A stretch of DNA of 64,000 bases, taken from an uncultured Acidobacteriota bacterium (GTDB taxonomy: Bacteria; Acidobacteriota; Blastocatellia; RBC074). The notes under the pieces were generated by a model. The model saw nothing but the letters and a program-made list of their open reading frames with translations. It made no database searches and had not been told where the DNA came from. Shown here one piece after another: positions 18,983-37,500 of the stretch (position 1 is the stretch's first letter; every line of letters begins with the position of its first letter). The stretch is taken from contig CAWCKY010000006.1 in NCBI GenBank assembly GCA_963796275.1, positions 768,001-832,000 on the forward strand, written 5' to 3'. A program made the position numbers and the translations under genes.

Positions 18983-19052
18983 AGACGGATTAACAGGATA
19001 TTCTAGATTTACAGCTCTCCCTCAATCCTGATGAATCCTGATAATCCTGTCT
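18983..19052. repeat. Palindrome with 9-mer tandem arms (ACAGGAT / AATCCTG)
   Basis: agacggattaacaggatattctagatt ... aatcctgatgaatcctgataatcctgtct. Confidence 0.65.
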
Positions 19053-19072
19053 ATGTATATCGGAGGAAGACA

Positions 19073-20011
19073 ATGGCAAATTCATCGGCAACGGCCAGCA
19101 CACTGCTGGCTCTCTCGAATGAACTGGCCGACGCCGTCGCGCGGGCCGGCCAGTCGATCGTCGCAGTCAACGCGCGCCCTCGCATTCCGTCTAGCGGAGT
19201 TCACTGGCGGCAGGGTCTCATCGTAACTGCAGAACATACCGTTCAGCGTGATGAAGAGATCACACTCACTCTGCCGGACGGACAGACGGTGAAGCCGGAA
19301 TTGGTGGGCCGTGATTCGAGTACAGATTTGGCTGTGCTCAGACTCCCGAGCGCGAACATTGCCAATCAGCCAGTGGCGGAGGTCGGGGATGCGACTGATC
19401 TGAAGATCGGGCACCTGGCGCTCGCCGTTGCGCGTCCCGGTGAGCGCGGCCTGAGCGCGAGCCTGGGCGTGGTCAGCGCGCTCAGCGGATCCTGGCGCAC
19501 CTGGGGCGGTAGTCGCATCGATCAATTTATTCGTCTCGACCTGTCGATCTATCCCGGTTTCTCGGGAGGAGCGCTGGTAGACGCGCGCGGCCGCGTGGCC
19601 GGCATCATTACCTCGGGTCCGCGTAACTCCGTGATGGCGATCCCCGCCGCGACCGTCAACCGGGTGGTTGAGCAATTGTCGTCGAAGGGGCGCATCACGC
19701 GCGGCTTCCTCGGATTGGGTATGCAACCGGTTCGATTGCCCGATGCGCTCAAACAATCGCTCAATCTCGAAGGGCACGGGGGCGTCATCATTGTGGAGGT
19801 TAAACACGGCGGTCCGGCAGATCGGGCCGGCGCATTAATCGGCGATGTCCTGGTCGAACTCGATGGTCGAGCGATCGGCGAGCCGGGCGACGTGCAGGCT
19901 GCGCTCGATCCGGAGCAGGTGGGGAAGACCGTTAAGGCCAAATTTGTGCGCGCTGGCGCGCGGATCGAGTTATCTATCGTAGTGGGCGAGCGACCGCCCA
20001 GGGAGGAGTAG
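19073..20011 (+). CDS. S1C (HtrA-like) serine protease with PDZ domain, no signal peptide
   Basis: GGAGG RBS; TAEH, TDLAVL, PGFSGGAL catalytic motifs; GFLGL PDZ loop. Confidence 0.9.
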   Translation: MANSSATASTLLALSNELADAVARAGQSIVAVNARPRIPSSGVHWRQGLIVTAEHTVQRDEEITLTLPDGQTVKPELVGRDSSTDLAVLRLPSANIANQPVAEVGDATDLKIGHLALAVARPGERGLSASLGVVSALSGSWRTWGGSRIDQFIRLDLSIYPGFSGGALVDARGRVAGIITSGPRNSVMAIPAATVNRVVEQLSSKGRITRGFLGLGMQPVRLPDALKQSLNLEGHGGVIIVEVKHGGPADRAGALIGDVLVELDGRAIGEPGDVQAALDPEQVGKTVKAKFVRAGARIELSIVVGERPPREE

Positions 20012-20012
20012 A

Positions 20013-20909
20013 ATGTCTGTGGTGGAATCATTGATCGCAGGGACCAACTCCTTATTCGCCGAAGAGTCCGCAGCTCTGGCCGAGCGATTGCGACGCTCTA
20101 CGGTGCAGGTGAGAGATGGCTATCGTGGAGGCGGCTCGGGCATTATCTGGCGCCCCGACGGTCTCATCGTTACAAACGCCCACGTCGTGCGGGGCCGTGG
20201 CGCGCACGTCGAACTTTCAGATGGCCGAGCGTTCGACTCCGTCGTAGTCGCGCGGGACACAAGGCGCGATCTCGCATCCTTGAAGATTCAAGCTGATAAC
20301 CTGCCTGCGGCGGAGATCGGCAATTCCGATGGCCTGCGCGCAGGCGACCTCGTTTTTGCGATGGGCAACCCACTGGGCATTCCAGGCGCGCTGACGGCTG
20401 GAATTATGCAAGCGCATAGTCTCGTCGATGGCCGCCGCGGGCCCCAATGGATTCAAGCGGATGTGCGAATTGCGCCCGGCAACTCGGGCGGCCCGCTGGC
20501 TGATGCGCGAGGGCGCGTCATCGGCGTCAACAGTATGATCGTCAACGGTCTCGCCCTGGCTGTACCGAGCAATGCGGTCGAGCGGTTCCTGCTACGGCGG
20601 CATGAGAAGGCCTATCTTGGCATCACATTTCAACCTGTCCGTATCCCAGGCCGGGGACAATCGGGTCAGGAGCATAACGGATTGCTGGTTTTAAAAGTCG
20701 AGGCCGACAGTCCGGCGGATGAAGCGGGTTTGATGCTTGGTGATGTTTTACACGGAGCAAATGGCAGGGAGCTGGATGATCCCGCCGATTTGGCCGATGC
20801 GCTGGCTGATGTCACCTCGGATCGGACACTGCGCCTCGTTCTCACGCGCGGCGGCAGACAGGTCCATTGTGATGTAACTGTGCGCGCTATTATGGCGGAG
20901 GCCGCGTGA
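20013..20909 (+). CDS. S1C (HtrA-like) serine protease with PDZ domain, no signal peptide
   Basis: GSG, TNAHVV, RDLA, PGNSGGPL; AYLGI PDZ loop. Confidence 0.92.
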   Translation: MSVVESLIAGTNSLFAEESAALAERLRRSTVQVRDGYRGGGSGIIWRPDGLIVTNAHVVRGRGAHVELSDGRAFDSVVVARDTRRDLASLKIQADNLPAAEIGNSDGLRAGDLVFAMGNPLGIPGALTAGIMQAHSLVDGRRGPQWIQADVRIAPGNSGGPLADARGRVIGVNSMIVNGLALAVPSNAVERFLLRRHEKAYLGITFQPVRIPGRGQSGQEHNGLLVLKVEADSPADEAGLMLGDVLHGANGRELDDPADLADALADVTSDRTLRLVLTRGGRQVHCDVTVRAIMAEAA

Positions 20910-21550
20910 TTCGTGTCCTGATAGCAGCCAACGCCCTGCTCGTACGAGCCGGGTTGGAGGCGCTGCTCAAAGAGAGCACAGGGTCGGAGGTCGTAGGGAG
21001 TATTCCCTCTGCGCAGCTCGCGCGCCAAATCATTGACCTGAGGCCGGATGTAGTGGTGCTGGAATGGGAGCGTCACGACGAAGGATTCTCGCCATCGTCG
21101 ATAGCTTTGGGGGTTTTCGGCGACGAGCCGCGCAGGCCTGAGTTCGTCCTGCTGACCGATGAATCTCACGCCCCCTGGGTATTTAATGCCTTACGGGCGG
21201 GTGTGCGCGCTGTCCTGCCGCGCGACGCCACGACGGAAGAGCTGGAGGCGGCAATTATTGCGGCCGCTGCCGGTCTTGTAACGATGCATCCGGATACGGC
21301 CGACTCGCTGCTCAACAGCGCGCCCTCTCCCGCGCACACGCTCACAGCCACGCAATCCCTCACGCCGCGGGAGGTCGAGGTGCTGCGAATGCTGGCCGAA
21401 GGCCTGGGCAACAAAGAGATCGCGTTGCAGCTCGGCATTTCCGAACACACGGTCAAATTTCACGTCGGCTCGATCTTCACCAAGCTCGATGCGACGAGCC
21501 GCACAGAAGCGGTGATGACCGGTGTCAGGTTGGGCTTGATTATTCTTTGA
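20906..21550 (+). CDS. NarL/LuxR-type regulator with atypical receiver domain
   Basis: LTPREVEVL..LAEGLGNKEIA..LGISEHTVKFHV HTH; GTGA overlap with upstream gene. Confidence 0.9.
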   Translation: MIRVLIAANALLVRAGLEALLKESTGSEVVGSIPSAQLARQIIDLRPDVVVLEWERHDEGFSPSSIALGVFGDEPRRPEFVLLTDESHAPWVFNALRAGVRAVLPRDATTEELEAAIIAAAAGLVTMHPDTADSLLNSAPSPAHTLTATQSLTPREVEVLRMLAEGLGNKEIALQLGISEHTVKFHVGSIFTKLDATSRTEAVMTGVRLGLIIL

Positions 21551-21639: not shown

Positions 21640-22512
21640 CTATGTCGAATAGATCGGATTGGACAAGAGAAAACTGATGGCGGCGACGCGAGCCGGATCG
21701 GGCTCTTCATCTGGGATGGCGGCCATTATGGCATCGCATCTGGATTTTATTCCATCGCGGAATTCCGGATGAGTGAAGATATAGAGGTCGTTCCGTAAAA
21801 TGCCTTCCAAAACTCTCTCTCCGACTTTCATCGGATCCATATAGACAGAGGAGACTGAGTGCACCTGGCGCATCTTGTCCGTCTCGGCATACCCCGTGTT
21901 CGAGAGATGAGTCGGACGCGTCAGGCCGCTCTCGGCGATGTTTGTCTGAACGGGGCCCGGGCAAAGGACTGATACGCCGATATTCTCCGCGACCAGTTCC
22001 GTTCGTAACGCCTCCGACAGACCGACGACAGCGAACTTCGCGGTAATATATAAACCAGCCCCGAGTGTCGGAAGGAAGCCGGACATCGACGAGGTGGTGA
22101 CGATGTGTCCGCCCTCGCCATGCGCGAGAATGCGAGGGAGGAAAGTCTGGACGCCGTTGATCACGCCTCCGAGATTGACGTTCATGACCCAGTCCCAATC
22201 GTCGTAAGTCGCGAGCTTCATCGGCCCTCCGAGCCCGATTCCCGCGTTGTTGCACAGCACGTGGACCTTACCGAAGACGCTCTCGGTCTCGTCGGCCGCG
22301 CGATACATCGCCTCGCGGTCAGAGACGTCGAGTTCTATGGCATGAACCGCGCCCGTCCCATTGAACGAAGCCATCGCCTCATCCAGGTGGTCGCGCCGGA
22401 TGTCGGCGATCACTACCTTGATGCCCTCGCGGACGAAGACCCTCGCCATAGCAAGGCCGATGCCGCTGGCCCCGCCGGTAATAAATGCGACTTTGTCTTT
22501 CACGTCTTTCAT
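21640..22512 (-). CDS. Short-chain dehydrogenase/reductase (LigD/LigO-like subgroup)
   Basis: TGGASGIG, CNNAG, YITAK; VVIADIRRDHLD, TYDDWDWVMNVNLGGVING. Confidence 0.9.
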   Translation of the reverse strand: MKDVKDKVAFITGGASGIGLAMARVFVREGIKVVIADIRRDHLDEAMASFNGTGAVHAIELDVSDREAMYRAADETESVFGKVHVLCNNAGIGLGGPMKLATYDDWDWVMNVNLGGVINGVQTFLPRILAHGEGGHIVTTSSMSGFLPTLGAGLYITAKFAVVGLSEALRTELVAENIGVSVLCPGPVQTNIAESGLTRPTHLSNTGYAETDKMRQVHSVSSVYMDPMKVGERVLEGILRNDLYIFTHPEFRDGIKSRCDAIMAAIPDEEPDPARVAAISFLLSNPIYST

Positions 22513-22555
22513 CGATTTCTCCACTCATATGCCCATATGGTCTTTGAGAATTAAA

Positions 22556-23185: not shown

Positions 23186-24583
23186 TCAAGCCCATTCTCT
23201 CGATTCCGCTACGCTGCGGCCGTATGGCTTCATGCCGAGCCAGATGACGAGCGTGCCCAGCGGACCCAGTAAGAGACCGGTTAAAGAGAGCGAAAGCCCG
23301 ATTTGACTCTCGGACTGGAAGACATAATCCGTAAAGACCGCCACAATGGTCGGCCCTATTCCGACTCCGATCACGTTGAAGACGAACAGGAAGAGAGCCG
23401 TGATCTGCCCGCGCATCTGATTGGGCGTAATGATTTGAAGCGCGGCATTGAGCGGGGCTGCGGTACACGCCAGCCAAAAGAGGCTGAATGTCGATACGGC
23501 GATGGCCAGATAAGCGTTCGGCATGAACGGGAACATTATCCCAAACGGCAGCGCCACCAGCTTGGCCAGAAAAACTACGCGCAGGTTCGCGTCGTCGCGT
23601 CCAGCTTTGGCGAAGCGCTCGGCGAGTATGCTTCCGAGCAGCGCTCCGATCGGCAAAACGGCGATGATAATCAGTCCCTGGATCAGCCCGTATTCTTTAG
23701 GCGTCCAACCGAAAGTCCGCATGTAAAAGGCGGGAGCCCAACTGGCGCCGCCGATGGACATGACGATTTGAATGCCCATCCCAATGAATATCGGTGCGAA
23801 GGTAGCTCTGTTCTTGCCTAGGAAAGCGAACACGTCTCTGATCGGAATAGGCTTTGTTGAATCATTCGTGTTAGCGCTGATACGCCCTCTCCTCTTAGGC
23901 TCGCGAACCGTAGCCAGCAGAGCGGCCACGATCAGTCCGGGTAGTCCGACGACGACGAACGTCAGTTGCCAGCCACGCATTGTCGCGCCGATCAGAGGGA
24001 GAGTTACCGGAGGCAAGTTTAAAAACATTTGCGTGATAGCGCCGCCGATGATCAGAGCCAGGCCGGTTCCGGCATAGAATCCGAAGTTGAGAAATGCGAT
24101 AGCTCTCGGCAGTTTTTCTCTGGGAAAAAGATCTGCGAGCATCGAATAAGTCGCCGGCCCGCTGCACGCTTCACCAGACCCGACACCAACTCGGCAAATA
24201 AAGAGCTGCCAGAAGCTCTGAGCCAGGCCGCACAACGCGGTCATGAAACTCCAGATCGCGACTCCGATGCCGAGGATGGCTCGCCGGCTCTTATAATCCG
24301 CCATCCTCGCGATGGGAAGACCGAGAATCACGTAGAAGCAGGAGAACGCGAACCCCATCACCAGACTCATCTGGAAATCGCTCAGTCCCAGGTCGCGTTT
24401 GATCGGCTCGACGAGCAGGGAGACGATCCCGCGGTCGAGAAAGTTGATCATGAGCGCGAGGGCGAAAACGAAAACCGCATACCAGGCCCGGGCCGGGCTG
24501 GGCCAGGGTTCGCTCGTTGCGTCTCGCGCAATTCTCTCATCAGCCAAAGAATCGGCGGAGATTTTAGTCGCTTCAGTGCTCAT
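23186..24583 (-). CDS. MFS transporter (spinster-like)
   Basis: NFLDR..SLLVEPIKRDLGLSD, ARMADYKSRR motif A, about 12 hydrophobic segments, PNQMRG. Confidence 0.92.
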   Translation of the reverse strand: MSTEATKISADSLADERIARDATSEPWPSPARAWYAVFVFALALMINFLDRGIVSLLVEPIKRDLGLSDFQMSLVMGFAFSCFYVILGLPIARMADYKSRRAILGIGVAIWSFMTALCGLAQSFWQLFICRVGVGSGEACSGPATYSMLADLFPREKLPRAIAFLNFGFYAGTGLALIIGGAITQMFLNLPPVTLPLIGATMRGWQLTFVVVGLPGLIVAALLATVREPKRRGRISANTNDSTKPIPIRDVFAFLGKNRATFAPIFIGMGIQIVMSIGGASWAPAFYMRTFGWTPKEYGLIQGLIIIAVLPIGALLGSILAERFAKAGRDDANLRVVFLAKLVALPFGIMFPFMPNAYLAIAVSTFSLFWLACTAAPLNAALQIITPNQMRGQITALFLFVFNVIGVGIGPTIVAVFTDYVFQSESQIGLSLSLTGLLLGPLGTLVIWLGMKPYGRSVAESREWA

Positions 24584-24623: not shown

Positions 24624-25523
24624 TCATTCCAAGACCAGCTGGCTTGCCCTGGCTTTGGCGTTCATTTGGCGGCGGCCCTCTTCGATCGCCAATCGCCTGG
24701 GATCGGCTTCGCCTTCGGGCAGAGCCGCCAGGATTTCGTCGAAGAGCGCCTTCAACTCTTCCTTGAATTCGGGGTGGGTGAAGATATAGAGGTCATTGCG
24801 TCGGATGCCGCGCAGAACTTTCTCGCCCATCTCTTCTGGCTCCATTCCGAATTGATGTATCTCCGGCAGCCTGGCCATAAACTCCTGATTGGCGGGCCCG
24901 ATGTCGGTGGAGAACTGCGGCGGGCGGATCTTGTCGCTCTCGTATATGGCGGACTTGACAAGCCCCGGACATACCACGGAAACGCCGATGCCATAAGGCA
25001 TCAGGCTCCAGCGCAGCGATTCGCTCAGCCCGCGCACGGCGAACTTCGCGGTCGTATAAACGCCCGCACCGGGCCCGGTGATGAACGAAGCCATCGAGGC
25101 CGTGTTCACGATCTGGCCCCCTTCGCCGTGTTTCTTGATCCGGGGGACGAAGGTCCGGATGCCGTTGATCACTCCGCCGAGATTGACGCCGAGCAACCAG
25201 TCCCAATCTTCATACGTGCATTCATCCATCGGCGCGAAAAAATTGACGCCGGCGTTATTGCAGACTACGTGAACCTTGCCGAACACCCGTTCCGCCTCGT
25301 CCGCCGCGCGATTGAAGGCCGCGCGATCGGTCACGTCCAACCGGATCGGATGCGCGCTTCGGCCCGTCTCACCGAAATGAGCCATCGTGCGATCGAGATG
25401 ATCCTGCCGGATGTCGGCGATAACTACCTTCATGCCGGCGTCATGAAAAACCTTGGCCATACCGAATCCGACGCCGCTGCCGCCGCCGGTGATAAAAGCA
25501 ACTTTTCCCTGTACGTCTTTCAT
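24624..25523 (-). CDS. Short-chain dehydrogenase/reductase (LigD/LigO-like subgroup)
   Basis: MKDVQGKVAFITGGGSGVG, MKVVIADIRQDHLD, CNNAG, YTTAK. Confidence 0.9.
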   Translation of the reverse strand: MKDVQGKVAFITGGGSGVGFGMAKVFHDAGMKVVIADIRQDHLDRTMAHFGETGRSAHPIRLDVTDRAAFNRAADEAERVFGKVHVVCNNAGVNFFAPMDECTYEDWDWLLGVNLGGVINGIRTFVPRIKKHGEGGQIVNTASMASFITGPGAGVYTTAKFAVRGLSESLRWSLMPYGIGVSVVCPGLVKSAIYESDKIRPPQFSTDIGPANQEFMARLPEIHQFGMEPEEMGEKVLRGIRRNDLYIFTHPEFKEELKALFDEILAALPEGEADPRRLAIEEGRRQMNAKARASQLVLE

Positions 25524-25566
25524 AGCGGACCTTTCAATCAAGACTGCCCTTCTACGCGTCCCGACA

Positions 25567-27354
25567 TTAGAGCGGACACCCGCAGTCTTCATCACTCTCC
25601 TTATTTTCCGGAAGCGGGCAGCCGCAGTCTTCCTCGCTCTCTATTTTTTCGGGTGCAGGGAAGAAGTAATGCCGAACATCGTAGCTCGGACGGATCGCAG
25701 TCTGCGGCCGCCATTTGTCAATGGATGCGGATGTCGTATGAGCGAGATCGGTCGTCAGCCAGAGCGGGTTCGTTTCGCCGCCGACGATGACGACATTGAT
25801 GTTTTCCGGCTCGTTCCATGGCGCGATCAACGTGTCATCCGGGACTTTAGCCCAGGTGGCGTACGGTTCGACTCCCCGCCGCGCGAGCGGAACCATAAGG
25901 TTGCTCACGACATCAGCTTCCCAATATTGTTTCGCGGGTATCTTGACGTTCTCCGAGAGCCACCGGGCCAGAGATTCTTTCGTCTCGAAGCCGTGATTTT
26001 CTTTAAGACCTTTCGCCACCAGCGGGTCCATGACCAGCGTGGCCATTGAACGAAGCGCCTGAAACGCTTTCAGCATAATTGCGGTCTCTTCGTGCGCGCC
26101 GCGGCGGTTGGGGGCGCCCATGGCGTTGATGAAGCTCCAACCTCTGAAGAGACTGACGACGCTCTCTTCGGGGCGGAAGCCCTTTTGGACGTGGAACGAT
26201 CCCCAGACGCTCTTCTCTTCATTCTCGGCGACGCACATATTGTTATAGTTGAGATTGTTCCCCTGTGAACCGAGGAAAGTCTCTCCTACTTTGGTGTTCC
26301 CGAGCGTCAGGGTCATCAAAGTCCAGGCCCTGCCGATCGCCGAATTGGCCAGATTCACTGGACTCAGCGCGCCGACCCCGCAATTCATACCTATTTCATG
26401 CCGGATCGGGCCGTTGACGACCATCATTCTGCCGAATGAAGTCGTCGAACTCGGGATGGCGGGTTCACCGGTCGAGGCGATCGCCAGTAACACCGGAAGA
26501 TGCTCCGGTCTGGCGCCCGCCATTACCGCATTGATGGCGACCTTCTCGACGGTGTATTGCGTCCCCCGCTCTTTCTTGGTCGTGATGGTCATCTCGCCGA
26601 TAACCTCATCGGGAGGATGGCCTGTTCCCGTTAGCATTTCAGCCACTTTCTCTTCCGTGGGAAGAATGATCGGCAGTCCATCCGTCCAGCCGTTCTCATA
26701 AAAGAGGCGGCGAAGATTGTCTTCAGTATCCCGTTCCAACAGTCGCGGCTGTTCTGAGAAGGTCGAACTTAATGAAACCTGTTCAAAATTCTCCTGGGTG
26801 AGCGTGTCGATCACGCGCCGCATAATCGGAACGCCGGACACCGGGTCGTCCCCTTCGACATATCGGCGGAGGGTTGAGATGGGCATTCCCACGAGCGGAT
26901 GCGGAGTGAAGGTGAACGGCAGGACCATCCCGTGTATGCGCTGCTCCTTCGCCAGAAAATCGGCGAACCTCATCGTCGCCATCGGAGCTGTGGGGATTCC
27001 GTAATCTTTTTCCAGTCTTCTGCAGTATTCGGCGACCGCCGAAGAGCAGCCGTCTCAGCCGCCGACGCCGAAGATCACGGCATCGCACCTCCGCTTCAAT
27101 TCAGTCCAAAACTCCGGTTCATCCGTAAACATGTTTCCCGGCTTCCTCATAACTTCGGTCTTCACCGAAGGCATCCGTCTGGAAAACCATCCCTTCATCT
27201 CCTCCAGAAATTCATAAGCCCCGCCAAATCCGACATCCACCAGATAAACAGTTTTGCCTTCGATCTCACCAAGTCGGGGAGCCAATGGGGCCGGCTTTGT
27301 CGTATGAGTCGGCCGGCCCACCGGGTTCAAAACCGTATAAAGTGTTTTGGTCAT
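25567..27354 (-). CDS. UGSC-family selenoprotein (UxxC), fused to a conserved C-terminal domain, 595 aa; Sec at TGA 27057-27055
   Basis: ATG 27354 with GAGGAG RBS; ...DAVIFGVGG-TGA-DGCSSAVAEYCRRLEKDYGIPTAP joins in frame (25 codons) to ORF 25567..26982 (PHP, GWTDGLPIILPT, TVEKVAINAVMAG, VNGPIR). SECIS-like hairpin follows the TGA. Confidence 0.88.
27020..27054 (-). promoter_or_regulatory. Bacterial SECIS-like hairpin
   Basis: UGA-GACGG-CUGC-UC-UUCGGC-[GGUC]-GCCGAA-UACU-GCAG: 6-bp upper stem, G-first loop 17 nt after UGA, 4-bp lower stem. Confidence 0.75.
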
Positions 27355-27440
27355 TGAGTTCTCCTCAGCGGCACAGCGCCGTGCGCGTGCAACCAAACAG
27401 GTGATTGCAGCGCGCGGTGCCGATCGCGGTATTGATCGGA

Positions 27441-30400
27441 TCAAAAGATGAACTTCAACCCGAACTGAATCTGCCGGGACGAATTGACCGTGTTGAGAAA
27501 TCGCCCGACGTTCGGATTCGGATTCGGCGTCGGGGCAGCGGCCGTTCCAGTGAAAAGAGTAAATTGTGAAGGTGTCTGGAAATTCGGATGATTGGTGGCG
27601 TTGAAAACCTCCGTCCGGAACTGTATGTCCAATTTCTCTGAGATCTTCGTATTCTTCAACATAGCGAGATCGACATTGAAGAAGCCCGGCCCCCTGATCG
27701 AGTTCCTCGGCACATTGCCCAGCATGCCGAGAGGCTGCAAGACATAGCAGCTCGGATCGAACCACTGATTCGGATCGCCTATCAGCCGATCAGAATTACA
27801 ACCCGGGGCGCCGGAATAGTTCGGACGATCTCCGACGATACCGCCCAACCTCGACCGGGCGGGGAAAGTGAAGCCTGTCTGGATATTGATCGGAGTACCG
27901 TCGTAGGTGCGCAGGATTCCGCTCAATTGCCATCCTTCGATCAACTTGTTTCCGCGGAAGGGTAATGGATAGACGGCGTTGGCGCTGAAAGTGTGGGGGA
28001 TATCGAACGAGCAGAGTCCGCGATCGTAGGCTTGATTCAGCGCGTATGTTATCGGAAATGCCCCTTGTTCGAGACCGGAGCTGACCGAGCCGTCGTCGAT
28101 ACACTTCGACCACGTGTAGGCCGCCCCAAGGACAAATCCCTGACTGAACTGCCGATTGAGGCTCGTCTGCATAGAATGGTAAGTCGAGTGGCTGCTCGGC
28201 GCGACGTTGTTCAGTGAGCCGAAGTTGGGATTGGTCGCCATCCCCGAAAAAGGATTGCCCGGCGTGCCAGGCGAGCCTATGCCGCCAAGAGTCCCCATGG
28301 GCAGGTTCTGGTCGCGAATGGAGAACAGATGGACGCCACTCGAGCCGACATAGCCTACTGATGCGATGAAGCTGCCGGGAAGCTCACGCTGGATCGTCAG
28401 GTTGTATTGCATCGCATAAGGCGCGGTGTCTGTCGAATAGTCGAGCCCCGCGAACGCGGTATAGTTCGCGGCGAAGACGGATCCCGGCGGCAGCCCAATG
28501 CCATAGGGGTTTGAAAGAAGCAGTGGCGGAGCCGTAGGATTGCCCGTGGCTAGCCGCAGATTGACCAGAATGTTGGCGCCAGATGGCGGAGCCAGATAAA
28601 AGGCTGGCGCGTATGTGCGAGGGGCTACTGGCTCGTGGAAGATTCCGAAGCCGGCGCGTATCGATGTCTTGTGATCCTTGAACGGATCCCAGGCCAGGCC
28701 GATTCGCGGATCGAGATTCCAGAGGTTCGGATTTTTCGCCAGCACGCGATCGACTGTTGTGAATCCAGTCGATGTCAAGGGATCGAGGATCACGTTGAGA
28801 GGAATCCCTCCGGCTCCCTTGGCGTTCGTCGCGAACGCATATCGCAAACCCAGATTGAGCGTCAGTCGCGGCGTCACCTTCCAATCGTCCTGGATGTAGG
28901 GGAAGATGTCGATTTCGCGGAAATAGCGGGCAGTGGAGAAATCCGGTGACGGCGCCGCCATTCCCAACATATTGAGCGGCGTTCCATTCAGGAAATTCTC
29001 GAGCGTGCCAAAGGTGAAATTTCCGCCGACATAGGCCGGTGCGGAGAGGTTGGTTTGAACCCGCGTCACCGTAGCGCCTATCTTGAGGCTGTGTGATCCG
29101 CTGTTCAATATAAGGTCGTCTCCCACAGTGAACTTGTTCTGTACGAGGACAAACGGCACCGTGCCGCTGGCGCCGATCGGTGTGACCGGCCCGAGAGCCC
29201 CGGTGGCGAAGATCGCGCCGTCCTGCCGCCCTCCGCCGATTATCTGGAGCGCAGGCGTAGAGCCGTCGGTGCGGCCGCGCTCGTTGGTTCGCGTGAAGCT
29301 GAATCGAATCGAGTTGACCACCTTTGGCGAAAAGATCCGTTTCTCTTCGATGGTGAAAAACTGGTTTTTCGTATTGTCAACTTCCGGCCATAAAGCGAGT
29401 TCAGAGAGCGGAAAAGGGATGCGACGGAACGCCCTGTTAACAATATACCGCCCGAAGAGAGAATCCTTCTGCGAGAACGCGTAATCCATACGTCCGAGAA
29501 CATAGTCCTCGTTGATGATCTCATCGGCGACGGATGTATATAGCCCCACGCCGGTTCGACGGCCTTGAGCATCGAGCAGGTCGGCGCCTATCGGCAATCC
29601 CGGCGCGGCGGAGGCGTTTGGAAACGGATAGAGGTCCAATATCTTCGCTATCATCGCCTTGTCGGGATTCGGATCATTGGGATTCGGGACGCCTAAGTTT
29701 ATGTCGGGAGTGGAAGCCGTGCAGGCGGCAGTACTGTTGAGCGCGGCGCAAGGCAATATTCCCTGATGTACGTTCGCGTTCGGAACGAACAGGCGGCCGG
29801 TCTGGCCCTGCGACTGGCGAAGGCCTTCGTAAGTTCCGAAGAAGAAGAGCTTGTCTTGCTTGATCGGTCCTCCGAGCGCGCCTCCGAACTGATTCCTGCG
29901 AAACGTGGGTATGTCCGCCACCGGATCGTCGAAGTAATTCTTCGCGTCGAATACGCTGTTGCGCAGAAATTCGAACGCCGAACCGTGCAGCGCGTTCGAG
30001 CCGGATCTACTCACAGCGTTGACGACTGCGCCGGTTCCTCCATATTCGGCGCTGTAGGTGTTGGTCAATACGCGGAACTCCAGAATCGCCTCGACTCCGA
30101 GAGAATTGCCGGTGACCGACGATCCCGCCCCGTGATTGAAAAATCCCTGCAACTCAGTGTTGTCGAGCAGGAACGATTGTCCGACCGGCCTCGAACCGGA
30201 GACCGAATAGTTTGTTCCCTGACCGTAGAAAGTGGCCGATCCGCCTCCCCCGGCCGGGCTTTGGGGGACGGCCTGCACACCGGGCGACAGCGTCATCAGC
30301 GCCGTAAAATTTCGCCCATTCAGCGGTAGATCGCGCATCTGGGTTGGGGTGATGAGGGTAGAGACCGAGGCGGTACGTACCTCCACTTGCGCTGCCTCGC

Positions 30401-30794
30401 CTACCACGGTAACCGTCTCAGTCGTCGCGCCGGGTGACAGCGTCAGATCCGCGACAGGCTGGCTGCCGACCGTCAGAGTGATCCCCGTGCGGACTACCGT
30501 CTGGAACCCGGTGGCCGAAGCCCGAACTTCATATTCGCCGACGGGCAGATTCGGTATGTTGTATCGCCCCTGTGAATCTGTTATGGCAGATTGTGTGATT
30601 GAGGTTCCGAGGTTCTTCACCTCGATCTTCGCGCCGACCAACACCGCCCCTGAACTATCCGCAACTGTGCCTGAGATGGTCGCCGTTCTGACCTGCGCCT
30701 CGATACGAATCACGCCCACTATGACGATCAGAATAAAGGCGTATATCGAAGCGTTGCAGAACAGCTTCAACTTCCACATTTCCATTCTTGGCAT
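27441..30794 (-). CDS. TonB-dependent receptor, Oar-like, with carboxypeptidase-regulatory N-domain
   Basis: Signal peptide, ISGTVADSSGAV, LPLNGRNF, FLRNSVFDAKNYF, YIQDDWKV..LTLNLGLRY, RQIQFGLKFIF. Start placed after AAGGAG RBS (alternative 30809). Confidence 0.93.
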   Translation of the reverse strand: MPRMEMWKLKLFCNASIYAFILIVIVGVIRIEAQVRTATISGTVADSSGAVLVGAKIEVKNLGTSITQSAITDSQGRYNIPNLPVGEYEVRASATGFQTVVRTGITLTVGSQPVADLTLSPGATTETVTVVGEAAQVEVRTASVSTLITPTQMRDLPLNGRNFTALMTLSPGVQAVPQSPAGGGGSATFYGQGTNYSVSGSRPVGQSFLLDNTELQGFFNHGAGSSVTGNSLGVEAILEFRVLTNTYSAEYGGTGAVVNAVSRSGSNALHGSAFEFLRNSVFDAKNYFDDPVADIPTFRRNQFGGALGGPIKQDKLFFFGTYEGLRQSQGQTGRLFVPNANVHQGILPCAALNSTAACTASTPDINLGVPNPNDPNPDKAMIAKILDLYPFPNASAAPGLPIGADLLDAQGRRTGVGLYTSVADEIINEDYVLGRMDYAFSQKDSLFGRYIVNRAFRRIPFPLSELALWPEVDNTKNQFFTIEEKRIFSPKVVNSIRFSFTRTNERGRTDGSTPALQIIGGGRQDGAIFATGALGPVTPIGASGTVPFVLVQNKFTVGDDLILNSGSHSLKIGATVTRVQTNLSAPAYVGGNFTFGTLENFLNGTPLNMLGMAAPSPDFSTARYFREIDIFPYIQDDWKVTPRLTLNLGLRYAFATNAKGAGGIPLNVILDPLTSTGFTTVDRVLAKNPNLWNLDPRIGLAWDPFKDHKTSIRAGFGIFHEPVAPRTYAPAFYLAPPSGANILVNLRLATGNPTAPPLLLSNPYGIGLPPGSVFAANYTAFAGLDYSTDTAPYAMQYNLTIQRELPGSFIASVGYVGSSGVHLFSIRDQNLPMGTLGGIGSPGTPGNPFSGMATNPNFGSLNNVAPSSHSTYHSMQTSLNRQFSQGFVLGAAYTWSKCIDDGSVSSGLEQGAFPITYALNQAYDRGLCSFDIPHTFSANAVYPLPFRGNKLIEGWQLSGILRTYDGTPINIQTGFTFPARSRLGGIVGDRPNYSGAPGCNSDRLIGDPNQWFDPSCYVLQPLGMLGNVPRNSIRGPGFFNVDLAMLKNTKISEKLDIQFRTEVFNATNHPNFQTPSQFTLFTGTAAAPTPNPNPNVGRFLNTVNSSRQIQFGLKFIF

Positions 30795-31220
30795 TCTTTC
30801 TCCTTTCATTATTCATCGCCTGCGTTAAGTAAGGAATCGATAGCGATTAATCCGCATGCGCCGCATTTGGTGGATGGCGCAACGGACTGCAAGAACGGAG
30901 ATCAATTTAGACTTCAGAGAAATGGGCTCTGATATTTATGAAAGCCGAATACGAGAGCCTATATATGCCCTTGTCCTTCTGCTGTCAACTCTGTTATATC
31001 AGTTTTGAAAGATTACATTCAGATTCGCGACGATTCAGAGGGTTCAGGCGATTCATATGACCGATGCACAAAAATGGGAGACAGTATCCGACCCCCAAAA
31101 GGTCTCCCAAAGGGAGAATTTCCGGTTCTGAATCATGCACACACCTGTGATAGAGTAGCTCTTCAGTTTTATCCTCCTTCAAATTCAATAACTTATTAAC
31201 CAAGATTGAAGGGAGGATCT

Positions 31221-32237
31221 ATGCATCGAACAGAAACCTTACTCTTCTCTTTCGTCGTTCTCCTTCTCCTCTCCATCATTTATGCGCCTTCATTCGGGCA
31301 GTCGACATCCGATCAACGGGTTTTAAAGGTACGAACCGAGCTGGTGAACGTTGATGTTCTGGCCAAGCAAAAAAAGACCGGGCGCATCGTCAATAATTTG
31401 GATAAGGATGATTTCACCGTCCTCGAAGATGGCATCAAGCAGACGATTTCGCATTTCGGTCAGGAGCGGCTCCCGCTCTCGATAATCCTGCTCGTAGACC
31501 GCGCCGGATGCATCAACGCCTTCAATGATCGGATTCGGGGGGCGACGATCGATGCGTTCAGCCGGCTCAAGAGCGAGGACGAGGTCGCGATCATGACCTT
31601 CTCCAGCAAAGTGAGCCTTGCTCAGCCGTTCACCCGCGATCGCCAGTTGATCGCCGACCAGATCATGGCCGTCGAGAGGCAGCATCGGAGCGAGCAACAT
31701 TATTTCAACGCCGGCATATACGAAGCCTCGACCTATATGAGCAAGGCGGCCAATCCCCTGGGCAGGCGGGCGATCATCGTGCTGACCAGTCTCGAGGCGA
31801 GCATCGATTTTTCCAAGATATCGGAGAAGGAAGCGCTCGAAGCCTTGCTTGAATCAGGCGCTGTCGTCTCGGGCGTTCTCGTGAAGACGCTCGGCGCGCG
31901 CCTGGAGCAGGGGGTACGCGGGAAGCCGACCAGCATCCTGCGCCACGTCGGGTTGCGATCTGGCAGTCTGAAGATGTTCGTCGAGGAGACAGGAGGTGAG
32001 TTGATCAGCGCCCAGCCCGAGCGAATAAACGAAACGCTCGTTGAGATGGTCGATCATCTCGCGGTCAGTTATTCGCTCGCATACCTACCGACCAATTCGG
32101 TTCGCGACGGAAGACGACGGCGCATTAAGGTGCAGTTATCGCCGGATGTCGAGAAACGCGAAGGAAAGACGGTGTTGATAACTCGGCGCAGTTACATTAT
32201 GCCGAAGGACGTGAATACAACGGAGAAGAGTTTTTAG
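31221..32237 (+). CDS. Acidobacterial VWA-domain protein, secreted
   Basis: GGAGG RBS; LKVRTELVNVDV, DFTVLEDGIKQTI, PLSIILLVD, ETGG, YSLAY.P....DG..RRIKV. Confidence 0.88.
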   Translation: MHRTETLLFSFVVLLLLSIIYAPSFGQSTSDQRVLKVRTELVNVDVLAKQKKTGRIVNNLDKDDFTVLEDGIKQTISHFGQERLPLSIILLVDRAGCINAFNDRIRGATIDAFSRLKSEDEVAIMTFSSKVSLAQPFTRDRQLIADQIMAVERQHRSEQHYFNAGIYEASTYMSKAANPLGRRAIIVLTSLEASIDFSKISEKEALEALLESGAVVSGVLVKTLGARLEQGVRGKPTSILRHVGLRSGSLKMFVEETGGELISAQPERINETLVEMVDHLAVSYSLAYLPTNSVRDGRRRRIKVQLSPDVEKREGKTVLITRRSYIMPKDVNTTEKSF

Positions 32238-32313
32238 TTTTTAGTTTTTAGTTTTCAGTTGAACTGTCTCGATCAGCAACTGAAAACTAAAAACTGAAAA
32301 CTGAAAACTCTTC
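32225..32313. repeat. Heptamer-armed palindrome between convergent genes (possible bidirectional terminator)
   Basis: gaagagtttttagtttttagtttttagttttcagttg ... caactgaaaactaaaaactgaaaactgaaaactcttc. Confidence 0.85.
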
Positions 32314-34185
32314 TTAATAGCTCAACCCAAAACCATATTTGAACAGCGGATCATAATCGCGATCGCCGACGTTGACCGGCATCTGCGCTTTCGATCTCGG
32401 CCAACTGAAGGAGAGTTTCCCCGTGGGTTTGTAATCGCCGAAGAGTACATCAGCGACTCCGTGACCTTCAGTCCCGGGCAACCACGCCGCAACGAAAGCA
32501 TCGCTCTTATCGAGCACCTTCTCTATATGCAGCGGGCGGCCTGAGAGCAAGATCACCACCACCGGGACGCCCGTCTTCTTCATATTCTCGATGGCCGCAA
32601 TGTCATCTTGCGCGAGCGAGAGTTCATCCCGGTCGCCGAACATTTCGGCATACGGCGTTTCGCCCACCACGACGACACCGACATCCGCGCCGGCAGCGCC
32701 GGTTCCATCGGCAGAGAACGTGACGTTAGCGTCGTTTGCGACGGTCTTCCGGATGGCCTGCAGTATCGTTGTTCCACCGGTCGTAACGGCGCCGCTCTTT
32801 CCCTGCCAGGTGATGGTCCAGCCTCCGGATTGATTACCAATGTCATCCGCGTTCTTGCCGGCCACGTGGATACGCGCGAGGCTCTTTGAGAGGGGCAGGG
32901 TATTCTTCTCGTTCTTGAGCAGCACCAGCGACTGCCGCACGCATTCGCGCGCCACCTCGCGGTGCTCGGCGGACCCGAACTTGCTATGCAGGCTTCTGTC
33001 GGCCAGTTGCGATCTGTCTTTATTCATTAATCCCATCGCAAACTTGACCCTTAATATCCGTTTTACGGCATCATCGATCCGCGACATCGGCACCTTACCT
33101 TCATTGACCAGCTCTTTCAGCGTGTCAAAGAACTCCGGATATTTGTTGGGAACCATTACCATATCCATCCCCGCATTGATCGATTGCTGGATGTCGCTCC
33201 GGTAGTCTCCCGGTAACTCATCGATCGCGTTATAGTCCGAGATCAGGAATCCTTCGAAACCCAATTCCCCTTTCAGTATTTCGGTCAACAGCCGTTTGCT
33301 GCCAGAGCACTTCACCCCATTCCAACTGTTGTATGAGGGCATTATGGTGCCGACACCGGCTTTGATCGTGGTGATGTAGCCCTGCATATGGAGCTCTTTC
33401 AGCTCGGCTTCGGTCAACCGCGTGTCGCCGCGATCAAGCGGCCACCGGCCTCCCGATTTCTCATCCTTGGGCGACCCTGTGCCGTAGGTGGTGCCTCCAT
33501 CCCCGGCGAAATGCTTGGCACACGCGAGGATGCTCAATGGGTCGCTCAGGTCATTCCCCTGGAGCCCACGTACCGCGGATTCTCCGAGCGTGCTGGCCAG
33601 CTCGGGGGTTTCGCCGAACCCCTCGTATGTTCTCCCCCACCTGTCGTCGCGCGGGACTGTGACGCATGGTGCGAAGTTCCAGTTGATTCCGGTCGCCCGC
33701 ACTTCCAGAGCGGTTATGCGGGAGGCCTTCTCGACCAGGGCGGGATTCTGCATGCTGCCGAGTCCGATGTTATGCGGGAAGATGACGGCTCCCATAACAT
33801 TACTGTGCCCGTGCACGGCATCGACGCCGTAAAGCAGAGGTATGGCGAGACGCGTCTTGAGCGCCTTCGACTGCTGCTCATCATACATGTCGGTCCAGTC
33901 CTTGAGACCATTTCCCGTCTTCGGATCCGAGTTTCCTCCACAAAAGAGCGAACCGAGGAAGTATTTCTCGATGTCGTCGATGCTCTTGAGTCCGCTCTGC
34001 TCTGCCTGGGTCATCTGACCGATCTTCTCTTCCAGGGTCATCTGAGCTAACAGTTGCAGCGCTTTGTCGTCGTAATGAGTCAGGGGCTTCACCGTTCCGG
34101 GGTGTGCCGATATGGACGATATTTCTGCAGTGGAACACGCTGCACCTATCAGGGTGACGATGATTAAGGTGAATAGTTTTTTCAT
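32314..34185 (-). CDS. Glycoside hydrolase family 3 beta-glucosidase, probable lipoprotein
   Basis: MKKLF..GAAC signal; [31 protein letters not shown] nucleophile, GETPYAE, WLPGTEG. Confidence 0.93.
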
Positions 34186-34268
34186 TTCATCCCTCGTTAT
34201 CTGGTAGTTTGTGGTGATGTTGCGGCCGCCATTATAAAGCGACTCGAGATCGCAGGGGGGAAAAAATA

Positions 34269-34419
34269 TAGCGGGTTTCAGTTGAATGGATGCCGGAACC
34301 CGGCCACGGAGTCTTAGAGACAAAGAGTGGTTAATGGGAGGATATGGCTGACTGACAAACTCATTTTTTGTTGCTTCTCCGTGACCATGTTCCGAAATCC
34401 ACTCAACTGAAACCCGCTA
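34269..34419. mobile_element. MITE-like element, about 41-bp terminal inverted repeats, TA on both sides
   Basis: TA-GCGGGTTTCAGTTGAATGGATGCCGGAACCCGGCCACGGAG ... CTCCGTGACCATGTTCCGAAATCCACTCAACTGAAACCCGC-TA. Confidence 0.7.
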
Positions 34420-34474
34420 TTCAAGGATGAAGAACCGTATGGGGATACAACGCTGTCGAAGTAACTCTTTATCT

Positions 34475-34559
34475 GGTAGTCGGTAGTCGGTTTTAGATTC
34501 AATAGGCATTTGAGACTGAAAAAACCGTAATCGAACCTACAACCTACAACCGACTACCT
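34475..34559. repeat. Heptamer-armed palindrome (GGTAGTC / AACCTAC type)
   Basis: ggtagtcggtagtcggttttagattc ... gaacctacaacctacaaccgactacc. Confidence 0.7.
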
Positions 34560-34572
34560 ACCGACAACAATC

Positions 34573-37500
34573 TCAGAAGGTAAGCTTGAGCGCCATCTGG
34601 ATATTGCGCGGATCGCGGGCGGTGTTGATGAACCCGCTCTGACCACGCGTCTCCAGAGATACCGCCTGGCTTTGGTCGGGGACGTTGATCCCGTTAACTA
34701 CCCCGAACCACTGAGTGTTATTAAATATGTTGAAGAACTCAGCGCGGTACTGCAGGTTGACCCGCTCAGTAAATTTGAAGGTTTTAAAAAGGGAGAAATC
34801 GAAGTTCGTGAAACCCGGTCCACGAAAGGCATTTCTTCCCGTATTTCCGAGCATACCGTTTGCCGGACGGCCGAATGCGAAAGCATTGAACCACTCCCTG
34901 CTTGCATCGTCCTTCACGTAGACATCGCCTCCCAGATAATCAGCGCGAACCCCGTCTCCGAGAGTTCCCGGATTTCCGTTAGAGGTAACCGTGAATGGCA
35001 ACCCGCTCCAGATGCGAGTCACGCCCGATATCGTCCAGCCATCAAACGCCGCCCGGGCAATACTGTTATTGCCGAGTACATTGCCGAATCTGGGGAGATT
35101 GTAGATGTAGTCGAAGGTCAGGACATGCGTGCGGTCAAAGCCGGCAACGGCGCGTTCGCGACCTCGATCGAGGAAATAACCGATCGTACTGGCGTCGGTA
35201 TCCGTCTCGGTGATCGCCTTACTCCATGTGTAATTGGCGTTGAACGTGAAGTTACTGCCGAAGCGGCGGCTGACGCGCGTTTGCAGCCCGTTGTAGTTGC
35301 TGTTCGCACCGGTCTCCACCAGTGTGATGTCATTGAAACCTCTGAACGGGCGAAGCCCATCGACATCAGCGCCTGGATTGAGCTGCGCGCCCAGAAGTAA
35401 CTGGTTGATATTGCGCTGATACATCAGATGTCGCCCCATGGTCCCAATGTAAGCGATATCGATGCCGATCTGCCCTGGCAGCTCATGCTGTACCCCGAGG
35501 CTCCACGAATAGATACTCGGGATATTGCCTTCCGGATCGATGGCGATGAGGTTGGCGGGAAAACTCGATGCCCCGGAGATAAGGCCCGGACCAAAGTCGC
35601 TCAGCCTCCCGGGACCAAGAGACGGAGTAAGGGTCACAGGCGGATTGCCCAGACCGTCGAAGTAGTTATTGTTTTGCCGGATACGCTCGTAGAAGATTCC
35701 GAAGCCGCCGCGGATTGCGGTCCTGCCGTCGCCGAAGACGTCATAGGCGAAACCGAGGCGTGGCGAAAAATTGTTCTTACGGCTCTTGACGCCGCCTCTC
35801 GAGATTCCATCCCCCTCCTCTACCAGCCCATTAAGCGGGTTGCCTGAACCGGCTATGATGGCGCCGGTTGAGGCAATCTCCACCGCTTGCGCCGGATCGT
35901 AGCGATCGGCCAGAAAGTAATTCATGAGAAGCTGGCCATGCGTGGAGGTCGGTCCCATATACGCCCACCTCAAACCATATTCGAGCGTGAAGCGCGGCGA
36001 CACCTTCCAACTGTCCTGCCCGTAGAGCTCGAGACCATAGAACTTGAAAGAGCCGAAGAACTTTCCATTGCTCTGAGATGCCGACGTATAGTTTCCGAGA
36101 AGCAGGTTGGCAAACGTATTGCCGGTGTCCAGCGGGTTGGTGCTGCTTGCACCGAAATCCAGATTGACCTCATCGGTCCACGCGGGTTGTTGACCGTTGC
36201 GATTCATATTGAAGAAAGCGCCGGTCTTGACGGTGTGCCTGCCGCGCGAGATCGTCACGTTGTCCGTCCACGCGAATTGCCTCGCTTCGCTCTCCCAATT
36301 GTTCGCGAAACTGAAGAAATTACACGCGCCGACGCCGCAACTGAAGGCCGGGAATTTGTTTCGTAAGTTTGACCCATCCGGAAACAGCTCAGGGAAGGTG
36401 AAACCGAGCTGATCACGATCGTATGTCGCCGGATCGACGCCGGGCCTGATGTCGACGACCTGCGTATAGGTGATTGTAGCCGAAGATGAATTCGTTGGTG
36501 ATGGTCGGAGAGACCGACGAGATCAAGTTCCACGACCAGCTTGACCCAGGTTTCTTGCGGAACTGCGGCAGCACCGGATAGGAATTATCCGAGAACATCC
36601 CTAATCCCTGATTTTCGTCCTGCGAATCGTCAACCCAGCGGAAGAAGAAATTGTTCTTTGAGTTGATGTTGTAATCGAAACGGACTACTTCCTGGCGTTT
36701 TTTCAACGAATAGGAGTCTTGTGTGAAGACCCGTACCAGTTCGGGATTGCCAGGAACTCCCGCTGCGCCGGCGCGGTTGAGACTGCCTATGACTCCGAGA
36801 AATGCGTCGGCATTGCTGTTCCATTCGCTGCGCGGAACAATGTTATTAGGGTATGGCGTTCCCCCAATGATATTACCCCCTTCTCGTCTAACCGTTCCGG
36901 GTCTGAAGACAGTTCCGACAAAACACGGGCGTGAGCCAAGTCCGTCGCCATAGTCACATGATGAATTCGCAAGTGTGTCTGTCCTCAGCAACCGACTAAA
37001 ATCCCCATTCAAAATATCGGGATGCGCGACGTCGACGAAGGGATTGCCGTTCGGCCGCGTGCCGCGAGTCCACTCCATATTGAAGAAGAAGAAGGCCTTG
37101 GGATCGCTCATCGGAGAGAATTTGCCGAGCGGGATCGGGCCGCTGATATTTCCGCCGAACTGATTTAGACGAAGTTTTTGTTTGGTGTCGTTGAGCGGAT
37201 TACGCGCATCGAGCGCGTCATTACGCAGGAATTCATACGCCGTCCCGTGGAACTGCCTCCCGCCGCTCCTGGTTGTCGCCGAGATGAGAACACCGGGATT
37301 CCGCCCGTACTCAGCATTGAAGCTGCTGCTCTGAACCTTGAACTCGCCGATGGCATCCAGGCTCATCTGTGTGAACTGCCCGTCATTGGCTCCCACATCG
37401 GTGTTGATCGTACCGTCGAGATAGACGTTGTTCATCGAATCGCGCATGCCGTTGACATTGAACATCCCCGTCGAATTGAACCCGAGGTTGAAATCCGACT

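Follow-up and report, generated by a model that had tools for sequence, protein, structure and literature searches.

UGSC-containing proteins have been listed as a selenoprotein family since 2007-2008 (PMC2398784, Zhang & Gladyshev 2008), and a 2026 review still lists the family as uncharacterized (PMC13188914). Table 2 of PMC2398784 counts 255 selenocysteine (Sec) forms of the family against 21 Cys forms in the Global Ocean Sampling (GOS) data. That paper suggests a thioredoxin-like fold, and the legend of its Figure S1A describes a 'UGSC/Unknown_1' fusion from GOS in which UGSC is joined to a conserved domain of unknown function. Here we describe a long UGSC-family gene in a 64,000-nucleotide stretch of an uncultured Acidobacteriota genome (assembly GCA_963796275.1, contig CAWCKY010000006.1, positions 768,001 to 832,000 of the forward strand), hereafter the window. 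An initial annotation of this DNA had reported a hidden selenoprotein of a known but functionally uncharacterized UGSC type, a status of the family that PMC2398784 and PMC13188914 bear out. Our analysis indicates, with a probability of about 0.9, that positions 27354-25567 of the window (minus strand) are one gene, whose product is a Sec-containing member of this family. Both the family and a UGSC fusion have been in print since 2008, and the present gene adds another member.

The protein shares with the UGSC family the same Pfam domain, the same position of the U-x-x-C motif and a large excess of Sec over Cys forms (255 versus 21 in GOS; 62 versus 11 among the metagenome loci described below). 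It differs from the UGSC family model (∼147 residues) in carrying UDGC rather than UGSC and in having ∼430 extra residues after the domain. The GOS 'UGSC/Unknown_1' fusion likewise joins UGSC to a conserved extra domain, and Unknown_1 is likely to be the C-terminal domain described here; the literal GCUGSC motif is seen in the Alphaproteobacterial homologs L077-L079. In the selenoproteins GrdA, GrdB and PrdB, a Sec/Cys pair brings about the reductive cleavage of a bond in alpha position to a carbonyl or carboxyl group, and the thioredoxin system recharges the protein. Table 2 of PMC2398784 gives a UxxC motif for PrdB. Unlike the glycine and D-proline reductases, the full-length protein has no match to Pfam GRDB (PF07355) or Gly_reductase at E 0.1 or better, and no pyruvoyl subunit gene was seen nearby. 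The locus also invites comparison with the beta-aryl-ether pathway of Sphingobium sp. SYK-6 (LigD/L/N/O, LigE/F/P and LigG). It resembles that pathway in its LigD/LigO/LigL-like short-chain dehydrogenases/reductases (SDRs), which in the window belong to an operon with uptake genes. It differs from the glutathione-dependent SYK-6 pathway in that no etherase or lyase of the glutathione S-transferase (GST) type (LigE/LigF, LigG) is present, and a Pfam scan finds no GST domain in the selenoprotein itself. Any etherase-like role for the selenoprotein would therefore be an analogy of chemistry only.

The frame runs on the minus strand from ATG at 27354-27352 to TAA at 25569-25567 and has a sole interruption, the TGA at 27057-27055 (codon 100). 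A list of open reading frames (ORFs) holds it as two pieces of one gene, 27055..27765 and 25567..26982, which lie in the same frame. Translated with TGA as U, the gene encodes 595 residues with the junction DAVIFGVGG-U-DGCSSAVAEY, and the next in-frame Met after the UGA is residue 125 (ATG 26982), with 24 sense codons between. These details agree with the initial annotation, which had described two ORFs in one frame separated by one TGA and 24 sense codons, the GVGG-U-DGC junction, and a GAGGAG ribosome-binding site ahead of the upstream part with no obvious counterpart at ATG 26982. Inspection of the sequence upstream of that ATG likewise revealed no purine-rich Shine-Dalgarno motif. The same annotation had proposed one 595-residue selenoenzyme combining UGSC with a second domain; the single selenoprotein gene and its two domains stand, whereas the term enzyme goes further, to something that we infer. 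A promoter and terminator scan gave signal no better than shuffled sequence.

The evidence that carries this reading is the conservation of the UGA codon. A six-frame search reading through stops found full-length matches in 4 of the 400 other genomes of the phylum (401-genome sample), and all 10 matches carry the TGA. When one genome of each species was scanned, 28 loci turned up, in Acidobacteriota, Desulfobacterota, Actinomycetota, Chloroflexota, Bacillota and Alphaproteobacteria. The scan loci and the window yielded an alignment of 41 homologous segments, 39 of which extend into the N-terminal domain. All 39 of these fused homologs, from six phyla, have TGA at the same column and Cys at +3; the codon is shared by the closest, which are 89% and 77% identical, and by all 36 more distant ones. 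The motifs include GGUDGC, AGUPGC, GHUSSC and GCUGSC, the two residues between U and C varying (DG, PG, SS, ST or GS). In-frame protein conservation also extends across the 24 codons that follow the TGA in 39/39 homologs. These codons would stay untranslated were the UGA a stop. The shared TGA column and this conservation are the decisive, comparative part of the evidence. Some loci contain tandem paralogs of the long UGSC gene, each with a TGA of its own: L057 and L058 (4001-7546 in both), and L068 (4001-9005).

Homologs with a Cys codon lead to the same column. With Cys forms as seeds, a scan of metagenomes yielded 80 loci, 73 of which cover the Sec position; TGA occupies it in 62 and TGC in 11, in near-identical contexts (GVGH-U-STCAPAV versus GVGH-C-STCAPAV). 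The expectation set out with the initial annotation, that TGA or a Cys codon would be retained here with conservation on both sides, was thus borne out in the 39 aligned homologs and in these loci. The family is widespread and comprises 4314 representative clusters at E 1e-3 or better.

We then considered the hairpin that the initial annotation had placed after the UGA as a selenocysteine insertion sequence (SECIS), with arms UUCGGC and GCCGAA and a GGUC loop 17 nt from the codon. The hairpin is present there and belongs to the minimum-free-energy fold, with a 6-bp stem that begins 11 nt past the UGA. The fold energy of the 76-nt stretch is ordinary (z -0.36), and at least six Watson-Crick pairs with GU in the loop at the same distance are reached by 4.9% of 1000 synonymous recodings. 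Among 37 distinct Sec genes scored for at least five Watson-Crick pairs and GU in a 3-6-nt loop at a distance of 14-22 nt from the UGA, 25 had such a hairpin, compared with ∼4.9 expected from synonymous recoding (summed); by energy, 7/39 genes fall at or below the 5% tail of their recodings. In the metagenome set, a stem of at least four pairs was found at 57/62 TGA loci versus 2/11 TGC loci. The mean fold energy is -13.7 kcal/mol for Sec loci and -9.7 for Cys loci (Mann-Whitney p 0.0019 for 57 versus 11 distinct sequences, a value that overstates the difference since the sequences are related). Alignment of the first 48 nt, counted from the UGA, needs no gaps, and G22 and U23 are nearly invariant. 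The hairpin tracks TGA rather than TGC, in keeping with its proposed identity as a SECIS. An Rfam search (E up to 10) gave a chance snoRNA match only.

The source genome (9.46 Mb in 7 contigs, 94.7% complete) has the machinery that a selenoprotein needs: selA (560 bits), selB (336 bits), selD (359 bits) and tRNA-Sec (62.6 bits) all score over their curated cut-offs, and ARAGORN calls a tRNA-SeC with anticodon TCA. The proposal, made with the initial annotation, to look for this machinery thus met with selA, selB, selD and a tRNA-Sec(UCA). Together, the UGA, its homologs, the hairpin and the machinery supply every feature by which a bacterial selenoprotein is recognized bioinformatically, and at the level of sequence UGA-100 almost certainly encodes selenocysteine.

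Two further loci of this genome deserve mention. The selD gene itself (G000:C7:302299-303228, locus L001) contains one in-frame TGA, which suggests that the selenophosphate synthetase here is probably also a selenoprotein. A match to an EF-Tu/SelB-like GTPase lies in three pieces, one of them with an in-frame TGA (G000:C6:1279509-1280234, L010), adjoined by a weak tRNA-like match at C6:1280634-1280719; L010 may be a broken or frameshifted tuf-like gene.

Several observations weigh against this reading of the gene or against the redox mechanism considered below. Neither Se incorporation nor activity is reported for any UGSC family member in the available text of PMC2398784 and PMC13188914. The homologs are related by descent and the counts given above are not independent. 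Among 40 full-length non-Sec representatives drawn from a 1.84-billion-protein library (rows P0163 and P0216 look garbled near the site), the residue at the Sec column is Cys (14), Ser (10), Met (5), Thr (3), Ala (3), Gly (2), His (1), Leu (1) or Val (1). The 14 with Cys are mostly CxxC, and the 26/40 with Ser, Met, Thr, Ala or another residue indicate that the wider superfamily does not always depend on a redox residue at this position. The NCBIfam UGSC equivalog NF041046, which describes the short form, scores 55.6 bits and does not reach its cut-off of 125; by this comparison of scores, the protein is a divergent long form and not an NF041046 equivalog. The energy of the hairpin region in this gene does not stand out from that of synonymous recodings of the peptide (z -0.02), and RNAalifold found no single consensus structure for the 39 aligned post-UGA segments. 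The lack of a consensus is explained by the hairpin occupying two registers across the family, with 71% of cells paired as drawn and 74% paired when the 3' arm is slid by -3. Finally, no thioredoxin-reductase gene adjoins the selenoprotein gene in the window.

The Pfam UGSC match (71.6 bits against a cut-off of 25) aligns residues 8-164 with model positions 2-157 of 172, and so spans the TGA. From an alignment of 85 sequences, AlphaFold2 (AF2) predicts two domains in the whole chain with confidence (predicted local distance difference test (pLDDT) 91.7, predicted template-modeling score (pTM) 0.90), in agreement with the second domain that had been proposed to follow the UGSC domain; this second domain is separate, large and conserved. 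In this model, Sec100 lies between strand 92-98 and helix 101-118, with the U100-x-x-C103 motif at the start of the helix. The N-terminal domain is modeled as a flavodoxin/CheY-like alpha/beta fold. A VIA-align comparison of residues 30-192 places flavodoxin-, CheY- and B12-binding-like domains best, with Z of 8-10 over 113-135 aligned residues, and no thioredoxin appears among the best 50 matches listed, which leaves unlisted folds unexcluded.

The C-terminal domain (∼350 residues) is predicted with similar confidence when modeled alone (pLDDT 94.0, pTM 0.92). Scans of the full protein gave no Pfam or NCBIfam match in this domain, and a sequence search of the PDB with the family profile returned nothing below E 0.27. 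Foldseek searches with the whole model and with the C-terminal domain found no match at E 1e-3 or better (best for the C-terminal domain 1.2e-2, TM ∼0.2). With VIA-align, the best score for this domain is Z 5.5 over 89 residues; 2 chains reach Z 5 and 0 of 48,161 reach Z 8. A relationship to fumarate hydratase, raised by recurring weak rows of which the best is a class I fumarate hydratase (Z 5.5), was not accepted. The fused clade combines a Sec residue kept almost without exception with a domain of catalytic size that matches no known fold.

Within the alignment, neither U100 nor C103 varies, and 28/39 homologs retain C374. Only members of the GGUDGC and AGUPGC subfamilies have Cys-pair tails (C-x4-C-G-L-P or CGCP); GHUSTC and GLUSTC proteins lack such a tail and end at D-x-W-R. 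A 'second TGA' in some homologs was considered as a second Sec and rejected, being the true stop codon after the D-x-W-R end.

The features of the locus are collected in Table 1. On the same strand, the order of genes is beta-barrel, selenoprotein, SDR 1, major facilitator superfamily (MFS) transporter and SDR 2, and an MFS neighbor also occurs at L054 and L061. The two SDRs are 58% identical to one another and are nearest to one group in the PDB, consisting of structures deposited as 'C alpha-dehydrogenase' plus 3IOY. SDR 1 matches 3IOY best (318 bits), followed by 4YA6 (283), 4Y98 (260) and 4YAE (224), with the next structure below the group at 152 bits; SDR 2 matches 4YA6 (264), 4Y98 (249), 3IOY (239) and 4YAE (238), with the next at 174. 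PMC4858972 gives the PDB codes of the deposited C alpha-dehydrogenases as those of LigD, LigO and LigL, from the pathway by which Sphingobium SYK-6 degrades beta-aryl ethers.

Table 1. Coordinates of the features described in the text, numbered within the window unless a locus is named.
Feature	Coordinates	Strand	Basis or remark
Long-form UGSC-family gene read as a selenoprotein, 595 codons + stop	25567..27354	-	Open frame with TGA=U; full-length homologs
GAGGAG ribosome-binding site, 6 nt upstream of ATG 27354	27361..27366	-	Sequence reading
N-terminal UGSC domain, residues 8-164	26863..27333	-	Pfam PF24696, E 1.1e-19
In-frame UGA, codon 100, U-D-G-C motif	27055..27057	-	Read as selenocysteine; TGA/TGC column conservation, Sec machinery
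SECIS-like hairpin UUCGGC-GGUC-GCCGAA	27028..27043	-	Minimum-free-energy fold; recoding test; Sec-versus-Cys comparison
C-terminal domain, residues ∼195-549, motifs GWTDGLP and AINAVMAG	25708..26772	-	No family, no confident fold
C-terminal tail, residues 550-595, two (E/D)-E-D-C-G-C-P-L repeats	25570..25707	-	Translation; pLDDT ∼50
Outer-membrane beta-barrel, TonB-dependent-receptor-like	27441..30809	-	Pfam OMP_b-brl_4 617 bits + CarboxypepD_reg; ends 86 nt before selenoprotein start
SDR 1, LigD/LigO-like C-alpha-dehydrogenase relative	24624..25526	-	Pfam adh_short; starts 40 nt after selenoprotein stop
MFS transporter	23186..24583	-	Pfam MFS_1, E 1e-42
SDR 2, LigD/LigO-like	21640..22524	-	PDB best match 4YA6, 264 bits
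Thioredoxin-reductase-homolog neighbors at related loci, including those given	L084:4301-5287, L093:2086-3027, L096:7090-8028, L105:4787-5719, L116:263-1255, L121:3008-3982		

In the closer set, 14/39 loci, counting the window, have a LigD-like SDR immediately adjacent to the selenoprotein gene; they come from five phyla and three motif subfamilies. In a profile of 16 such adjacent SDRs, LigD, LigO, 3IOY and LigL rank first, at 324-299 bits compared with 255 for the next structure, and at L068 two selenoprotein paralogs flank two LigD-like SDRs. A tblastn search with the window SDR (E 1e-20 or better) hit 0/62 Sec and 0/11 Cys metagenome loci; in the blastp clustering, an incomplete SDR-like ORF at the L096 edge did fall into the SDR cluster. 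A low-Mr thioredoxin-reductase (TrxR) homolog is a neighbor at 15/118 clustered loci, usually abutting on the same strand, and accompanies Sec forms as well as Cys forms. Its score against TrxR 4ZN0 is 227 bits, it has a CASC motif, and it is the commonest neighbor in the GHUSTC and GLUSTC subfamilies. The abutting homolog is a candidate dedicated reductase. Rarer neighbors at related loci are a zinc-dependent alcohol dehydrogenase, a pyrroloquinoline quinone (PQQ) dehydrogenase, an acyl-CoA ligase and MFS.

We next asked what such a protein might do. The hairpin 11 nt after UGA-100 would recruit SelB with Sec-tRNA(UCA), so that Sec is inserted and translation does not stop. The resulting selenolate/thiol pair, U100 and C103, may then cycle between a reduced form and a selenenyl-sulfide and in doing so reduce a substrate held by the C-terminal domain. 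Recharging would proceed by a thiol-disulfide relay, perhaps through the Cys-pair tail and the thioredoxin system in the present protein and through the adjacent TrxR homolog in other subfamilies. For the operon described here, a small compound taken up by the cell, which the two LigD/LigO-like dehydrogenases would oxidize to a ketone, is the probable substrate. A redox relay is supported by the TrxR homolog linked at 15/118 loci, by the invariance of U100 and C103 and by the retention of C374 in 28/39 homologs. We consider a general redox cycle of this kind reasonably probable; our confidence in any particular substrate is much lower.

A more specific role is suggested by the SDRs. The long UGSC protein could act as a reductive lyase that works without glutathione and splits bonds alpha to a ketone, such as the beta-O-4 aryl ether in dimers derived from lignin. 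In such a reaction, the adjacent LigD/LigO-like dehydrogenases would first oxidize the benzylic alcohol to the ketone; Sec100 would attack the beta-carbon, expelling the phenolate; Cys103 would convert the selenoether to a selenenyl-sulfide, releasing the ketone; and the enzyme would be recharged by its CGC tail or the thioredoxin system. The 94.7% complete genome has 0 matches to GST_N, its glutathione synthetase (GshB) was not found, and the one match to GST_N_3, of 24 bits, lies in an 82-residue frame. The genome does encode ring-cleavage dioxygenases of the LigB and intradiol types. These dioxygenases, the identity of the LigD-like SDRs and the apparent lack of GST and GshB favor the lyase role. 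Against it, the SDR link is absent from the 73 metagenome loci of sister subfamilies and the fold of the C-terminal domain gives no hint. Among the papers listed on selenoproteins and lignin aryl ethers, none was relevant by title or abstract, and those listed on beta-etherases had no 'glutathione-independent' mention; no paper tying a selenoprotein to aryl-ether cleavage was found in them. We regard this role as unlikely overall. If it were correct, one selenoenzyme would replace LigE/F and LigG in bacteria without glutathione, anaerobes included, and provide a glutathione-free route for the breakdown of lignin dimers. If ether cleavage is not the function, the proteins are still an uncharacterized selenoenzyme family that merits a structure and an assay.

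A different account accepts the selenoprotein and changes the division of labor. Here the UGSC domain would be no more than a built-in thioredoxin-like electron carrier, the reaction of the C-terminal domain would be unrelated to the SDRs, and the SDR neighborhood would be incidental or specific to a subfamily. We give this account somewhat less than an even chance. It gains from the arrangement in relatives of the window's own family and class, where 26/60 genomes (G004 among these genomes is unpublished, and nothing claimed here depends on it alone) have a distant paralog only and no fusion. In 15 of those 26 the form is split, a ∼540-residue C-domain protein being followed within ∼1 kb by a stand-alone ∼180-residue UGSC gene with one TGA (loci among L025-L043, e.g. 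G007:C116:48863-50353). The occurrence of both split and fused arrangements indicates that the UGSC module is functionally tied to the C-terminal domain. The prominence of TrxR homologs beside the GHUSTC and GLUSTC genes, the absence of LigD-like SDRs from the Sec and Cys metagenome loci, and the variety of the other neighbors (alcohol and PQQ dehydrogenases, acyl-CoA ligase) point the same way. The recurrence of adjacent LigD-like SDRs across five phyla and three motif subfamilies, and the two paralogs that flank two SDRs in L068, speak against this account.

If instead the UGA were a real stop, the locus would encode two proteins, an N-terminal fragment of 99 residues and a second product of 471 residues initiated at ATG 26982. 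Public gene calls split the family in exactly this way. The best 120 database homologs listed are 356-479 residues long, cover 60-79% of the query and all miss the Sec-bearing domain, while 2 of them are already named 'UGSC family (seleno)protein' by NCBI; a protein atlas search gave clusters of the same family only, some under that same name. Under selenium limitation, moreover, some fraction of translation is expected to terminate at a UGA. A stop is nevertheless very improbable, given that the 24 codons between the TGA and ATG 26982 are conserved in frame in every fused homolog, the Cys-codon homologs are continuous across the site, the Pfam UGSC domain crosses the TGA and ATG 26982 has no ribosome-binding motif upstream. 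Met 125 itself is replaced in many homologs, where the column reads P-[MLIV] or P-[VF]. The long UGSC family is thus systematically cut in two by gene callers, and because the listed database homologs are without the Sec-bearing domain, redox-active selenoproteins are undercounted in soil Acidobacteriota and several other phyla. An error of sequencing or assembly at the TGA, or a pseudogene that recently acquired a nonsense mutation, has a negligible probability because the same codon recurs in the 89%- and 77%-identical homologs, in 36 more distant ones and in 62 metagenome loci.

Beyond the operon, the window has two other groups of genes. Just past SDR 2, positions 19031-21550 encode two tandem trypsin-like/PDZ (HtrA-type) proteases and a LuxR-type regulator. 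On the other side, the interval 31206-36258 contains a VWA protein (31206-32237), a GH3 glycosidase (32314-34323) and a second OMP_b-brl_4 barrel (34573-36258). The ORF of this barrel begins within the domain and may be truncated or mis-started. The interval looks like a locus for plant-polymer uptake and degradation.

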